Positions 14,260 to 46,790 of a stretch of 64,000 nucleotides of DNA are shown here, in pieces. The first letter of the stretch is position 1. Each line of letters begins with the position of its first letter. A program made the position numbers and the translations under genes. This DNA comes from a virus: IMG/VR virus record IMGVR_UViG_3300008012_000022, positions 1-64,000 of that record; one strand, written 5' to 3'. The notes beneath the pieces were generated by a model that saw only the letters and a list, made by a program, of their open reading frames with translations, had not been told where the DNA came from and ran no database searches.

Positions 14260-14519
14260 TAAATATTGTTTAGGTTTACAAAATTAGAATTTAATTTTGT
14301 TGCTGCCTCATTATAAGCAAGCGCGGCATCTTTTTCAGTATCAAAATATCCAATATTTTTAGTTTTCGCTTCGAAAGTGAGAGAAGACTTCCATTTTTTC
14401 TTTTCTTCACACCATGTAACACCTCTATATTTACTCGCAGAATCAGTATAAGCACCTCCATTTAACTTATTCTCACTGGCAGAACAACTACGTAAATTAT
14501 TAGTATTATTTCTCGTTCT
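14259..14519 (-). pseudogene. Start-less remnant of an HNH-AP2 endonuclease (AP2 domain intact)
   Basis: Reads NNLRSCS.SEN..N...SKYRGVTW...KKW...IGYFDTEKDAALAYNEAA; no ATG after the in-frame TGA. Confidence 0.8.
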
Positions 14520-16077
14520 TGAGGCGATTTCTCACGTCTTCAAACTTATGATCAATAATAAGTTGGCTATTTTTAAAAACAGGAACGAGGTGACTGTTCT
14601 GAGCGGCGAACCATGATACGTCTTCCATCATGACATAATCATTTCCAACCTTATACACCGAGACTAATCCAACTGCCGACTTCTTCAATCCATCATCTGT
14701 CTTTGGATCTTTGAACAGTGCTTTTGGTTCACCGTTAATCTCTGCATAAGTAGCTTTCATAGCGAACCCATAGGTGTCACGTGTCACGATAGCATCAGGT
14801 GTAATTGCACCCTGATATGTAAAGCTACCAATACCATAAACTACATTGGTTGACGAGAACCCTTTAGCTGCAAGACGCTCAGAGATTTCATTAGCACGAG
14901 CAAGTGTGATAGAATCCCCATAGATAGCGCCGATATGTGGGTCAAGAGTTTTGAATCCTGCGTAGTCAGTGCCTCCAAAGGTTTCCCATAGGCACTGGAT
15001 CAATCCTTTCTTTTCATCAGGCGTAATGTATGTTCCTGTCTTCTTGAGTCGTAGCTTGCGACTCTCAATGACTTGTGGATAATATTCTACCTCATCATCT
15101 GTGTAGCCTGCTACAATATGAACAGGATCTCCACTATCAGGACGAATAACTACCTTACCATCACGCTTCATGATTTCTTCTTTAAGCTGAACAAGTGTGC
15201 CACCATCAGGTGTGACAACCTGCCAGAAATCAAAGGTGTCACTGACAAGAGATACTATTCCATCTGGATATACTTCGGTAATCATACGCTTGAAATAATC
15301 GTAATCATCACCTCCATTGTCACCGTATGAAGAACCAGCACAAGCAACTGAGTGTTCCGTTGCATTGACTGAGCAACCAATCAATTCCTGACTTGAGTTG
15401 CCGTTATAATACTTCTCAACGAAGTCGATAGCAGGAACAGTATCGGTGCCAACGAATGATAAAAGGTGTGCAGCGCCAGATAGTATAGCTGATTCAGGTG
15501 AACCATGACCACGCATAGAGAAGTCGTGCCCCTGAAAAGGAACGAAATCACTATCACCTAACGTTTTTTCAGCCCATCCATCAAGCAACTGTCGATACAT
15601 GTGTGCTGTAGTTGCGCTTGTGCATGGCAACCATAAAGTATCACTAAGCAATGTCTCAATCGCATTGCTAATCCAAAAATGATCAGGGTGAGTATTATAT
15701 ACTACCAACATAGGCACACGAAGATTGACTCGTGACCCTTCGGGTAACGCCAAAATTTCAATTGGTAGATACCCTAAATCATGTAGTGCTTCAATGTGGT
15801 CACACTTAGCTTCGCTACCCATGTAGTTCTTATAGCGACGACGATACTGTGCCATCACTTCACCTTTAGGACGGTCAAAGAAATTGCGATCCCAATCGTC
15901 GATGAGGTATCGCTTGAGGAAATATTGTAGTCCGAAGAAGACTACCTTATCTACCCCCTCGACTCGTGATCCACGAGCAGTAAAGTTGCTATACATCATG
16001 GTAGTTCCTTTGGGGAACTGGTGATAATGGCCAAACTTGTAGCCATCCAACATGTAATGAGGACAATTAAGATTCAT
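14506..16077 (-). CDS. Nicotinamide phosphoribosyltransferase-like protein (probable Namat of NARP1)
   Basis: DGYK.GH..QFP, HDFSMRG, ATEHSV, SLVSDTFD, VIRPDSGDP, IYGDSIT, KDPKTD..KKSA. Confidence 0.9.
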   Translation of the reverse strand: MNLNCPHYMLDGYKFGHYHQFPKGTTMMYSNFTARGSRVEGVDKVVFFGLQYFLKRYLIDDWDRNFFDRPKGEVMAQYRRRYKNYMGSEAKCDHIEALHDLGYLPIEILALPEGSRVNLRVPMLVVYNTHPDHFWISNAIETLLSDTLWLPCTSATTAHMYRQLLDGWAEKTLGDSDFVPFQGHDFSMRGHGSPESAILSGAAHLLSFVGTDTVPAIDFVEKYYNGNSSQELIGCSVNATEHSVACAGSSYGDNGGDDYDYFKRMITEVYPDGIVSLVSDTFDFWQVVTPDGGTLVQLKEEIMKRDGKVVIRPDSGDPVHIVAGYTDDEVEYYPQVIESRKLRLKKTGTYITPDEKKGLIQCLWETFGGTDYAGFKTLDPHIGAIYGDSITLARANEISERLAAKGFSSTNVVYGIGSFTYQGAITPDAIVTRDTYGFAMKATYAEINGEPKALFKDPKTDDGLKKSAVGLVSVYKVGNDYVMMEDVSWFAAQNSHLVPVFKNSQLIIDHKFEDVRNRLKNEK

Positions 16078-16231
16078 CTCGTTTAGTTACTTTAAATGTG
16101 ATCGGGACTCCGTTAAAAACTTCTACCCGATATTTTTTCTTGAATTCGTCAAGGAAATTTTGCAATACCAATACGTGTTGTAGATCTGCTTTAGGAGAAT
16201 GTCTAATAGGTGGATCGCCAAAGTCAATCAT
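16067..16231 (-). CDS. 54 aa hypothetical protein between the two NAD genes
   Basis: MIDFGDPP...KRDES overlaps both neighbours (manual translation). Confidence 0.5.
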   Translation of the reverse strand: MIDFGDPPIRHSPKADLQHVLVLQNFLDEFKKKYRVEVFNGVPITFKVTKRDES

Positions 16232-17097
16232 AATACATCTACTACAGTTAAATTTCCGCCACTACAATAATCGCTCTGAGAATTGGTGACATATACGTTA
16301 TCAAATTTTTCACAAAGATCGGGTAAACCATTGCGGTTACAATCTATATGAGCCAGCACGATATCAATATGTTTCGCGCCCCTTCCTTTCAGCTTATCGT
16401 GAAGTCCGAGAAACGTGCCACACATAGCGCCAACATCATCAACCACAATATATTGTTGATCAGGATAGAGATCGCTATCAAAAATAGACCCACCCTCTGG
16501 TCCAGACTTATCTTGCACAACAATATTATTTATTTTACCTGTGATAGGATCACGATCTTTATCAGCATAAACAATATCGAACCACCGATCATTAGTATAA
16601 CCCTGACTATCAAGATACTTCATTACTCGACCCGTGCGTTTGATAGCACCACCATCAGGAGATACTAAAATAATATTATCCTTCTTAAATATTGTATCCC
16701 ATGGCATAACTTCCTCAACTTCGATAGTAAAACAATTATTTAAAAGTGCGGGAAGCACATCAGAATGTGGTTCAACAGTTAAAATTTCATCGACATCTAA
16801 TGAATTTAAAAAGTCAGCATAAACCTTTGAGGTTAATGGTTCGCCACTATCACACAAACGATCTTGCCGTGCTGCTGGAATGTAAGGAATCTTAAGAACG
16901 ATATGTGTTCTTTTACCACCTATTAATTCAGTGCGCCGAATTGCATCCACTTTCGTTGCAATCACCATGGGATCAAACCTTGATAAAATGATTACAGTAG
17001 TTGCTCTTAGTAATTGTACATCATTTATTTTACAATGATAGGTTCCGTCAGGAAACCACAGTTGCTCTTTGACTACCTCGCTGAATGTTTTTATCAT
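16228..17097 (-). CDS. Ribose-phosphate pyrophosphokinase-like protein (probable Adps of NARP1)
   Basis: FPDG, PYIPAARQDR, EPHS, SPDGGA.KR, K.RD, IVVDD....GTF. Confidence 0.88.
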   Translation of the reverse strand: MIKTFSEVVKEQLWFPDGTYHCKINDVQLLRATTVIILSRFDPMVIATKVDAIRRTELIGGKRTHIVLKIPYIPAARQDRLCDSGEPLTSKVYADFLNSLDVDEILTVEPHSDVLPALLNNCFTIEVEEVMPWDTIFKKDNIILVSPDGGAIKRTGRVMKYLDSQGYTNDRWFDIVYADKDRDPITGKINNIVVQDKSGPEGGSIFDSDLYPDQQYIVVDDVGAMCGTFLGLHDKLKGRGAKHIDIVLAHIDCNRNGLPDLCEKFDNVYVTNSQSDYCSGGNLTVVDVL

Positions 17098-17102
17098 GTT
17101 TA

Positions 17103-17130
17103 ATTATACTACAACTTTGGCGCTTGTCAA
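17103..17130 (-). promoter_or_regulatory. Consensus sigma70 promoter TTGACA-N16-TATAAT, leaderless start of the NAD operon
   Basis: Perfect hexamers; ATG 5 nt downstream of the -10. Confidence 0.85.
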
Positions 17131-17131
17131 T

Positions 17132-17164
17132 AAAAAAGGTGAGCGACTTTCGCCGCTCACCTTT
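17132..17164 (-). terminator. Rho-independent terminator
   Basis: AAAGGTGAGCGGC-GAAA-GTCGCTCACCTTTTTT. Confidence 0.9.
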
Positions 17165-17208
17165 AGGCAAGATAGCCTCCACCTTTGCGAACATCCACAA
17201 AGGAAAAC

Positions 17209-17457
17209 TAGATACTTTTTATTGGTGGTGTCGGCGTGTATCCCGAAAGACACTGGCCTCATCAGTTTAGCGACTTAGAAGATCAACCTTACCCCGTTGG
17301 AACGTGCACTCTCTTAATAAGGGATTAATCTCTACTCCTTCCAACCGTTGCACAGTTGTATTGAATGAGCTATAGCGTATTTGATTGTCGGCGTATCGCT
17401 TTCACGAACCTAACCTACATTATGACTCTTGTACTCTTATTATGCTGTTAGTATCTA
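17209..17457 (-). ncRNA. Candidate ~250 nt structured RNA
   Basis: End-closing helix TAGATACT/AGTATCTA, GAAA and UUCG tetraloop hairpins, duplicated ACGCCGACA, downstream terminator. Confidence 0.6.
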
Positions 17458-17463
17458 AATTAA

Positions 17464-17898
17464 TTACTTCTTGACGTATTTCACGCCATCGAAGATTAAA
17501 CTTTTTAGTGTGCGGTGATCTACTTGACGCAAGCGATTATCATAGTCACCCTTTCCACGTTCAATGTCAAGATCAACCACTTGTGATCGACCCATGCCTG
17601 TCTCACGTGTTATCATATAGCCACGAAGTTTTCGCAAGCTACCGTTCTGTTTTTCAAACTCTACAGTGAATACATTGTCACCAACCTCTCCAAATTTGTC
17701 AGCTAGCTGAGTCTTTGTCAGCTTTTCTGTTGATGAAAATTCATCTGCCGAATCTAATGACCTCACTAACGAGGCACCACTGATTGTAATATCATCGATA
17801 CCACGATTAAGATCATTCACATGAATTTGTGTATCTGCTCCATTGGTTTCAGTAACTTCAAGATACTGAACCATCCTTACAATATTTCCTTTTTTCAT
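17464..17898 (-). CDS. Hypothetical protein with a WYL/Sm-like (DUF2693-like) C-terminal domain
   Basis: VFTVEF.KQNGSLRKL.G...D....R...L pattern; start at MKKG. Confidence 0.5.
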   Translation of the reverse strand: MKKGNIVRMVQYLEVTETNGADTQIHVNDLNRGIDDITISGASLVRSLDSADEFSSTEKLTKTQLADKFGEVGDNVFTVEFEKQNGSLRKLRGYMITRETGMGRSQVVDLDIERGKGDYDNRLRQVDHRTLKSLIFDGVKYVKK

Positions 17899-18104
17899 TT
17901 GTTTGCTATTACTACGAATATACCAATTACGGCAATAAAAATAAAAGCGAGAGTCGTTGGAATCCATAAGGGGGCAGTCACCCACCACCATGACCAATCA
18001 ATCACATCTGTTAGTTTCAGATAAAGAAAGATTAAAAAAGTTCCAGTGCTTAATACACCACCACAACCAACATTTACAGTTCCATTTCCGCTATTATTTT
18101 CCAT
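17895..18104 (-). CDS. Small membrane protein (Fragile-X-F/TMEM185-like phage family)
   Basis: LKL..VIDWSWWWV.APLWI. Confidence 0.8.
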   Translation of the reverse strand: MENNSGNGTVNVGCGGVLSTGTFLIFLYLKLTDVIDWSWWWVTAPLWIPTTLAFIFIAVIGIFVVIANK

Positions 18105-18846
18105 AGATAATTTTAGGTTTTTGTTCGCCTGTCTTTTCGAAATAGTTATCGTCGAATTTCAATTGTTCGTCCTCCCACTTAAAACTACAGTGGCCAAAAT
18201 GCTTCTGTTGGTATTCAACTTTACGCTTACCAATCTCATCATTCAACCATGAATAATGATCGATCCATGCTATATCTTGTGGCACAGTAAGATTAGTTAA
18301 CTGTCGATAATCAACAAGTCCATTCGTTCCGATCCGATGATACGCCATATCATTATCCCATACAAAACGAGGACTAAAATCGCCATTATAATGAGTGGAA
18401 AAGATACGCGGAGGACAAAAAGGTTCCTCCATATAACTATCAGTATCGAAGATGTAATTCTTGAGACATAATTTATACCATGCAGCAGGATTATCCTGAA
18501 CGAACTGAACAATATTATTTATTTGTTCAGGGGTATAGATCTCGTCGCCATCTACCAACCAAATATAATCTACATTTGGTAATTGTTGAAGCGCCAAATT
18601 TCGCGCTTCGTGTTCCTGTATATATTCAGGACCGTCTACCAAACGAATTCGAAACTGATTATGACTATTTCTATAGCCACGAAGAATTTCCGTTGTGTTG
18701 TCCCGATAATCTTCTTGAGTAGAATACTCTGCGAAGGGAACCGAGACTGCGCTCACCTCAAAATCGGGACGCAGAAACGGCTCTAAAGATTTGTGCACAT
18801 AAGGCTCTACATTATATGCACAGAAAACTATTCCGAAAGTTGGCAT
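18094..18846 (-). CDS. Family 2 glycosyltransferase
   Basis: AYN.E.YV, D.T.EIL, RNLAL, WLVDGDEIY, HYSW. Confidence 0.85.
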   Translation of the reverse strand: MPTFGIVFCAYNVEPYVHKSLEPFLRPDFEVSAVSVPFAEYSTQEDYRDNTTEILRGYRNSHNQFRIRLVDGPEYIQEHEARNLALQQLPNVDYIWLVDGDEIYTPEQINNIVQFVQDNPAAWYKLCLKNYIFDTDSYMEEPFCPPRIFSTHYNGDFSPRFVWDNDMAYHRIGTNGLVDYRQLTNLTVPQDIAWIDHYSWLNDEIGKRKVEYQQKHFGHCSFKWEDEQLKFDDNYFEKTGEQKPKIIYGK

Positions 18847-46476: not shown

Positions 46477-46485
46477 AGGTAAACT

Positions 46486-46513
46486 ATTTTACACAACTTT
46501 TCAACTTAGTCAA
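46486..46513 (-). promoter_or_regulatory. Sigma70-like promoter TTGACT-N16-TAAAAT overlapping a GTGTAA motif
   Basis: Upstream of the RNR operon; ATG 9 nt after the -10. Confidence 0.65.
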
Positions 46514-46560
46514 AGGCTTTTTGTAACAATTTTTTACTATACTAAAAACTCAAAGGTTCG

Positions 46561-46790
46561 GTGCTGAGAAAATACTCGACACGTCAGACTTACTCGCGCT
46601 GTTAACTAATCTTAACAGTTGGCGCTTCGTAAGTCTTCCTCTAACCGATTCTTGTTTCTGTAAGTCGTCAACTGTTCGAAAAACTCGCAACGATGAGCAA
46701 AGATAATGTCCTAACTTTCTCGTTTTTAAGCAAAGCCTATCAGCTACTCGTCAGTTATTCCTCACGGGAGGTCGTTCGTTTTTCTCGCAC
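46561..46790 (-). ncRNA. Candidate ~230 nt structured RNA divergent from the sigma gene
   Basis: 5'/3' pairing GTGC-GAGAAAA / TTTTCTC-A-GCAC, internal stems, TTGACA promoter just upstream. Confidence 0.6.

Follow-up and report, generated by a model that had tools for sequence, protein, structure and literature searches.

What fills the gap between the last gene of one minus-strand transcription unit and the promoter of the next is the question raised by this locus of a freshwater phage. The DNA belongs to a 93,368-bp IMG/VR virus record with an estimated completeness of 67%, of which the first 64 kb were analysed (hereafter the window), and all genes neighbouring the gap are on the minus strand. 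Upstream lies a three-gene operon, which opens with a family-2 glycosyltransferase assigned with Pfam (18094-18846), continues with a 69-aa membrane protein of phrog_1374 (17895-18104) and closes with a 144-aa WYL/Sm-like protein (17464-17898); the second and third genes share the overlap ATGA, and the third has its stop codon at 17464. Downstream, a terminator scan detected a strong intrinsic terminator at 17164-17135, present on the minus strand only and made of a 13-bp stem with 7 G-C pairs, a GAAA loop and a T-run. It is directly followed by the consensus sigma-70 promoter TTGACA-16-TATAAT (17103..17130, minus strand, 12/12 matches) of a putative NARP1-type operon (14506..17097, minus strand). 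The explanation that we favour, to which we give about even credence, is that in this orphan phage the upstream unit extends into the gap with a non-coding 3' end, which accumulates as a separate RNA.

Transcription of the stretch was suggested by RNA libraries. In a word index, a 1-kb query with the site at its centre had 16-24% of its words in each of six freshwater metatranscriptome runs, a share that fits a piece of ~200-270 nt. On positions 16200-18200, three metatranscriptome runs yielded one contig each, at 17175-17443, 17230-17444 and 17228-17444, each matching the window at 100% identity, confined to the candidate stretch and free of loose ends. Their depths were low (3.9-8.7), and it is to be noted that contigs, as distinct from reads, carry no information on strand, true ends or RNA level and that DNA may occur in RNA libraries. 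The three runs stem from different studies, albeit all are 2017 freshwater metatranscriptomes and perhaps belong to one campaign. Their common stop at 17443/17444 counts as a "weak hint" by the standard used for reading contigs; a contig from a DNA run extends beyond 17444, to 17461. The lack of any RNA-run contig on 16200-17174 or 17445-18200, in three runs and at the level of contigs, carries no evidential weight. At the other side, two of the RNA contigs stop at 17228-17230 and the third reaches 17175. The core of the RNA found in the libraries can thus be placed at 17224..17444 on the minus strand, with a 5' limit shared by three runs and an uncertain 3' end. Taken together, the contigs (17175-17444) begin 20 nt past the stop codon at 17464 and lie upstream of the terminator at 17164-17135, which, at the level of contigs, is what is expected of a 3'-UTR-derived sRNA, namely a discrete species after a stop codon that ends at or before a terminator. 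The stretch probably makes a non-coding RNA of ~220-310 bases. A discrete species that has its 5' end at ~17443/17444 and measures 270 nt or more is a reasonable, not a conclusive, reading, and a shorter species may end soon after the second copy of a 9-mer, ACGCCGACA, that occurs twice in the stretch.

Because the terminator is found on the minus strand only, the neighbouring genes are all on that strand and the fold of the plus strand is the poorer one (z +1.17 vs -1.16), we infer that the RNA is made from the minus strand; a plus-strand transcript, which would have no terminator at its far end, was rejected. As to coding capacity, the stretch holds no ORF having both a start codon and a Shine-Dalgarno sequence, and ORFs of 52 and 50 aa were discarded as small proteins since they traverse the terminator and the promoter and have no Shine-Dalgarno sequence. 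A gene remnant was likewise dismissed, since 4,055 ORFs of relatives' loci, compared with the stretch by tblastn, produced only noise. Rfam 15 returned no match at gathering score in the whole window, and at E values up to 10 the interval 16900-17700 gave terminator-like or chance matches only, the best being STnc390 on the terminator with 20.7 bits against a threshold of 50. ARAGORN found no tRNA or tmRNA in the window, none appearing at a relaxed threshold of 80% and only implausible intron-containing calls at 60%. The preliminary description had claimed a novel non-coding RNA, and this claim was supported in part, as regards its novelty (no family of Rfam being matched at E values as high as 10), its transcription (contigs in three runs) and the lack of a plausible ORF, and was not supported as regards its fold and its modules. 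Two known types of RNA were rejected: a ToxI-like type III toxin-antitoxin RNA, the stretch having one 9-nt repeat and no tandem array and the downstream genes being those of Adps and Namat, and a CsrB-like sponge, the five GGA motifs comparing with ~5.5 expected from composition.

No sigma-70-type site passing the promoter scan was found upstream of 17444, the best candidate being ACGTCA-16-GATACT, in which ACGTCA has 3/6 matches to the -35 consensus and GATACT (17455-17450) lies 6-7 nt ahead of the contig limit. Were GATACT to act as a genuine promoter, be it weak or phage-specific, transcription would start there and the RNA would be primary. The one phage-specific promoter considered, the GTGTAA-type motif of the structural genes, does not occur upstream of 17444 and was rejected. 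The closest described things to this RNA candidate, by analogy, appear to be ncRNA1 (~210 nt) and ncRNA2 (~120 nt) of Pseudomonas phage PAK_P3, which are 3'-UTR-derived, abundant and without a start site of their own (PMC10914365). Like these, the candidate is a few hundred nucleotides long and lies directly downstream of a phage gene with no recognisable promoter or start site, and it stands out in RNA data as a separate species. It differs from them in having no sequence similarity to them and in being known from metatranscriptome contigs alone, whereas the PAK_P3 RNAs were mapped in a cultured host, at single-nucleotide resolution and by northern blotting, and are conserved within their phage genus (PMC10914365).

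The favoured explanation would work as follows. Transcription of the upstream unit would pass the stop codon at 17464 and finish at the intrinsic terminator (17164-17135), and the 5' end near 17443/17444 would result from endonucleolytic processing or, less likely, from initiation at the weak promoter-like GATACT site. Further cleavage, within the A-rich linker past the second ACGCCGACA, may leave a core of ~215-220 nt, and a longer form of ~310 nt would end at the terminator. The 3' extension of the transcript (17131..17223, minus strand) comprises this linker, two hairpins (17203-17182 and 17177-17166) and the terminator with its U-tract; hairpins and terminator would shield the RNA from 3' exonucleases, a stability that would be the cause of its detection, and would insulate the next unit, the anti-defence operon of the NARP1 type, served by a consensus promoter of its own. 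Any job of the RNA would most likely be done in trans, by an sRNA or a protein-bound RNA. In our analysis it resembles neither a riboswitch nor a ribozyme nor a fixed scaffold.

The most serious competitor of this explanation, which we regard as possible though on the whole unlikely, is that the RNA is a functionless by-product: decay intermediates of a spacer or 3'-UTR would persist owing to a block of exonucleases by the terminator and hairpins, and the DNA would have no role besides termination and insulation ahead of the NARP1 promoter. The behaviour of the body of the RNA speaks for it, as it folds like shuffled sequence and its motifs are within chance. A core of 251 nt (17207-17457), which the preliminary description had held to be a defined fold, has a minimum free energy (MFE) of -59.1 kcal/mol; its dinucleotide shuffles average -53.7 +/- 4.7 kcal/mol (z -1.16), and 32 of the 200 are no less stable. 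For the span present in the RNA libraries the z-scores were +0.43 and +0.48 and the ensemble was diffuse (centroid -8.4 vs MFE -47.9 kcal/mol), and 120-nt windows sliding across the body (17460-17191) gave z values of -0.9 to +1.3, as in the coding flanks. Shuffles thus fold equally well and the proposed fold is not borne out. Strong structure (z -4.5 to -5.0) is confined to windows that contain the 3' hairpins and the terminator; these elements, also part of the earlier proposal, are indeed present with a z of about -5, and it is because of the terminator that a 336-nt span reaches z -2.77. As the body is predicted to have no stable fold, it is doubtful that the RNA is stable because it is structured, and its stability might instead need a protein.

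The by-product explanation also gains from the lack of a homologue in any collection searched. No match was obtained by blastn in distant mode against 50,697 phage records. Three patterns were scanned in IMG/VR, and the matches were all chance or belonged to an unrelated GC-rich coding family: at least 117 for two copies of the 9-mer, 60 for GCCGACA...CUGAUGA...GCCGACA and 37 for CUGAUGAGG...ACGCCGACA; neither nhmmer nor blastn detected any resemblance to the RNA. When 185,579 species genomes were scanned with a pattern, a single chance match came up, in a Saccharimonadales MAG. The RNA was also absent from 80 IMG/VR and 80 metagenome loci encoding relatives of the 144-aa protein (best 46% identical), and 26 whole relative records gave no match in a DNA search and with a single-sequence covariance model, a weak result obtained without positive control. 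Conservation of the RNA, on which the preliminary description depended, was therefore not found in phage records, IMG/VR, metagenome contigs, species genomes or beside ~160 relatives. It is to be noted that this lack of conservation is shown at long range, the 144-aa relatives being at most 46% identical. Close kin of the phage are not within reach in IMG/VR, as the relatives of its DNA polymerase there are only ~30% identical, and a single-protein scan with the Adps candidate found no close kin. Closer relatives of the 144-aa protein are known, with proteins 79%, 68% and 62% identical.

Relatives of the upstream gene are mostly devoid of such a spacer, which again suits a by-product. In 24 of the 36 relatives examined the next gene starts within 52 nt of the 144-aa gene, and the longer gaps in the others hold terminators or unrelated sequence. 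A terminator follows the gene in several relatives, so that it often ends a unit, which accords with the favoured explanation. An antisense regulator of the phage's own genes was rejected, since no complementarity longer than 12 nt exists in its own genome, and the absence of such targets counts on the same side. Two observations oppose the by-product explanation. Of the three RNA contigs, two span the body but leave out the protecting 3' hairpins and terminator, whereas a product protected at its 3' end should show the opposite; and 330 nt of functionless DNA would be unusual in so densely packed a genome.

We give a small chance to the model of the preliminary description itself, in which a 250-nt RNA is closed by a helix between UAGAUACU and AGUAUCUA and carries two modules of the form AGG-hairpin-ACGCCGACA as binding sites for a ligand or for a protein, which might be the neighbouring WYL/Sm-like one. 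In its favour, the elements exist: every motif that it named was found in its place on the minus strand, and none is statistically notable. Module 1 (17386..17411, minus strand) reads AGG-U-UCGU-GAAA-GCGA-U-ACGCCGACA, with a 4-bp hairpin closed by a GAAA loop, which persists in centroid folds, and the 9-mer at 17394-17386. Module 2, which together with a preceding CUGAUGA (17265-17259) occupies 17229..17265 on the minus strand, reads AGG-CCA-GUGUCU-UUCG-GGAUAC-ACGCCGACA, with the 9-mer at 17237-17229, and in both modules GAUAC precedes the 9-mer. An IMG/VR pattern scan aimed at module 2 returned chance or coding matches only. Duplication beyond this 9-mer could not be substantiated. In a local alignment of the two halves the best result was the 9-mer alone, with a score reached by 83 of 500 shuffles; a direct repeat of at least 9 nt arose in 11% of 2000 shuffles of the span originally described, and with one mismatch allowed the 9-mer was found 6 times across the window where 7 were expected. 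These repeat and helix patterns were moreover chosen post hoc from a 64-kb window.

The helices of the model fared no better. The 5' arm of its closing helix, UAGAUACU, lies at 17457-17450 on the minus strand, upstream of the RNA-library contigs, and overlaps the weak -10-like GATACT (17455-17450); its 3' arm, AGUAUCUA, is at 17216-17209 on the same strand and is paired in the MFE structure of the longer span. Given the contig limit at 17443/17444, the 5' arm falls outside all three RNA contigs, which speaks against the closing helix, and a perfect 8-bp inverted repeat with arms at least 200 nt apart occurs in 4.7% of 2000 shuffles. What speaks for the arms is that the contig limits lie just inside both of them; if paired, they could, speculatively, mark a processing stem in a precursor, UAGAUACU being one of its arms. 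Between the modules, GUGCA/UGCAC (17353-17349 / 17308-17304, minus strand) and the 7-bp helix GUUGGAA/UUCCAAC (17345-17339 / 17302-17296, minus strand) had been described as a possible pseudoknot. From loop-length limits this appears sterically doubtful, as the single nucleotide G17303 would have to cross a 5-bp stem, and because this gap is too short we read the two pairings as probable alternatives. GUUGGAA/UUCCAAC (17296..17345), which closes a poorly paired insert, is the only helix of the body to survive in centroid structures.

The heptamer CUGAUGA had also been taken as a hint of self-cleavage, which was not sustained. With the hammerhead ribozymes (RF00163, RF00008, RF02275-RF02277) the stretch shares CUGAUGA, a closed helix (GGC...GCC) and a GA step. 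It differs from them in that GACA (17233-17230) follows the helix in place of the invariant GAAA, and with GACA standing where GAAA is needed it does not form the hammerhead core. Neither helix I, nor helix III, nor a cleavage triplet could be placed, and no ribozyme covariance model matched, the hammerhead models giving nothing at E up to 10.

What also speaks for the model of the preliminary description is that the neighbouring 144-aa protein has a predicted barrel resembling those of nucleic-acid binders. The protein belongs to a conserved phage family of 22 clusters with an invariant core (...FTVxFxK...GRSxVxDL...RQVDHRT...), and its sequence matched nothing in Pfam (E up to 0.01, WYL family PF13280 included), PHROG or PDB. 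AlphaFold2 run on the family alignment gave a confident model (pLDDT 92). In this model the C-terminal barrel (residues 59-139) superposes on the WYL domains of PafBC, BrxR, CapW and DriD with Z 6.1-7.5 over 70-73 residues at an rmsd of 2.8-4.0, values that, with Z below 8, may reflect merely a common arrangement, and on Hfq/Sm proteins with Z 5.5-6.1, again a resemblance at the level of the fold only. Foldseek returned weak Tudor and Sm matches only, and the weak tandem Tudor matches suggest that the N-terminal part of the model may form a barrel too. The WYL/Sm-like label thus holds for the predicted fold, a small beta-barrel, and not for the sequence. According to the model the protein would be akin to WYL, Sm and Hfq proteins in its C-terminal small beta-barrel (residues 59-139) and would differ from WYL proteins in having no HTH or WCX partner domain; it is a putative nucleic-acid binder. 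A conserved RNA-protein partnership received no support, as the ~160 relatives' loci that encode the protein hold no similar RNA; this missing linkage also counts against the model of the preliminary description, alongside a fold no better than that of shuffles, a diffuse ensemble and a repeat that is not significant.

A further possibility is a new, lineage-restricted regulatory or anti-defence RNA, cut out of a precursor at the inverted repeat and cooperating with the WYL/Sm-like protein. Its prospects are slim. If true, the RNA could, for example, be a protein-bound decoy, or a sensor of nucleic acid or of an NAD signal, timing or supporting the counter-defence by NARP1.

Even less probable, in our view, is a cis-regulatory leader or attenuator that would sense a signal and control read-through of the terminator into the NARP1 genes. 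The position of the candidate, directly upstream of the genes for Adps and Namat and with a terminator at its 3' end, is what invites this reading. The downstream operon had been described as an NAD operon, an assignment that our comparisons confirmed and refined, at the level of sequence, to the NARP1 type by the presence of both a Namat-like and an Adps-like protein. NARP1 denotes an NAD+ reconstitution operon (bioRxiv 10.1101/2024.02.11.579819). Its putative Namat is a Nampt-like protein of 523 aa (14506-16077, minus strand) that matches 9W5X and 9W5W, the PDB codes of Namat (PMC12774641), with E 1e-155, compared with E 1e-56 for NAMPT, and it is because this protein is closer to the solved Namat than to NAMPT that we call the operon NARP1-type. 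The Prs-like Adps candidate (16228-17097, minus strand), which adjoins the Namat gene on the same strand, has Pfam Prs-like matches under the cut-offs and matches ribose-phosphate pyrophosphokinases of the PDB with E 1e-13; its ADPR specificity is putative. As side observations, the 523-aa protein aligns to Namat (9W5X/9W5W) in two stretches, which suggests an insertion after ~residue 327 relative to the crystallised Namat, and the operon contains an extra small gene, a 54-aa ORF (16067-16231, minus strand) that lies between the Adps candidate and Namat, overlaps the ends of both genes and has no PHROG match.

Attenuation meets several obstacles. A perfect 12/12 promoter stands between the terminator and the ATG, and with its own promoter after the terminator the NARP1 operon needs no read-through; for the same reason a riboswitch expression platform within one transcript was rejected. 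No riboswitch family was matched in Rfam, neither the aptamer consensus of the NAD+ riboswitches (nadA and pnuC motifs) nor that of the other classes. The NAD+ riboswitch class I (nadA motif) has two similar tandem domains located before NAD genes, and the candidate is like it in presenting two similar short tandem modules upstream of NAD-related genes. It differs from it in that Rfam finds no match, a promoter separates it from the genes, these genes are those of a phage anti-defence salvage and not nadA, and the repeat of the modules is within chance. Some alternative pairing is allowed by the 7-mer AAAGGUG, of which the hairpin 17203-17182 has one copy in its 3' arm and the terminator another in its 5' arm. 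Through this duplication, 17186-17179 could form 8 bp with the terminator's 3' arm, a pairing too weak for an attenuator; the alternative pairings are short (5-8 bp) and form no classical antiterminator.

The least probable explanation of all is that the RNA signal is an artefact of contaminating DNA or of another organism's RNA, since, even though presence in an RNA library alone does not show transcription and the depths are low (3.9-8.7), the same ~215-270-nt piece, 100% identical and with a common limit, was the sole piece obtained from three separate runs, the contigs lie wholly on the stretch without loose ends, and Rfam finds no likeness to an abundant cellular RNA.

Non-coding RNAs of uncultured phages are, to our knowledge, almost unexplored. 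Seen alone in lake metatranscriptomes and beside an NAD+ reconstitution operon, the present RNA makes a reasonable candidate phage regulator; as one orphan RNA it adds to the growing set of phage non-coding RNA candidates of the 3'-UTR type and opens no new class. The negative result is the more useful one, as neither the elaborate structural model nor the ribozyme and riboswitch hints should be carried forward.

Three minor observations were made in the course of this analysis. The first concerns the start of the NARP1 mRNA: the -10 hexamer (17108-17103) ends 5 nt before the ATG (17097-17095) of the Prs-like gene, which has no Shine-Dalgarno sequence, so that this mRNA would be leaderless or nearly so. 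Early promoters of the sigma-70 type do not usually have this feature, which may point to the host, since leaderless mRNAs are common in Actinobacteria. The second is an unrelated, conserved coding segment, CTGATGAGGTGCGGCAGGTTATCCG.TACGCCGACAC (peptide ~ADEVRQVIRYADTFE), shared by ~20 GC-rich IMG/VR phage contigs and met as an accidental match to our patterns. The third is a motif, TGTGTAA or GTGTAA, that recurs 10-25 nt ahead of gene starts in the structural module, in many cases immediately behind a terminator, with sites at 80513-80580, 81781-81822 and 84584-84648 of G000 and, on the minus strand, at 46477-46692 of the window. It is probably the late promoter of the phage and is perhaps read by the phage's own sigma factor.
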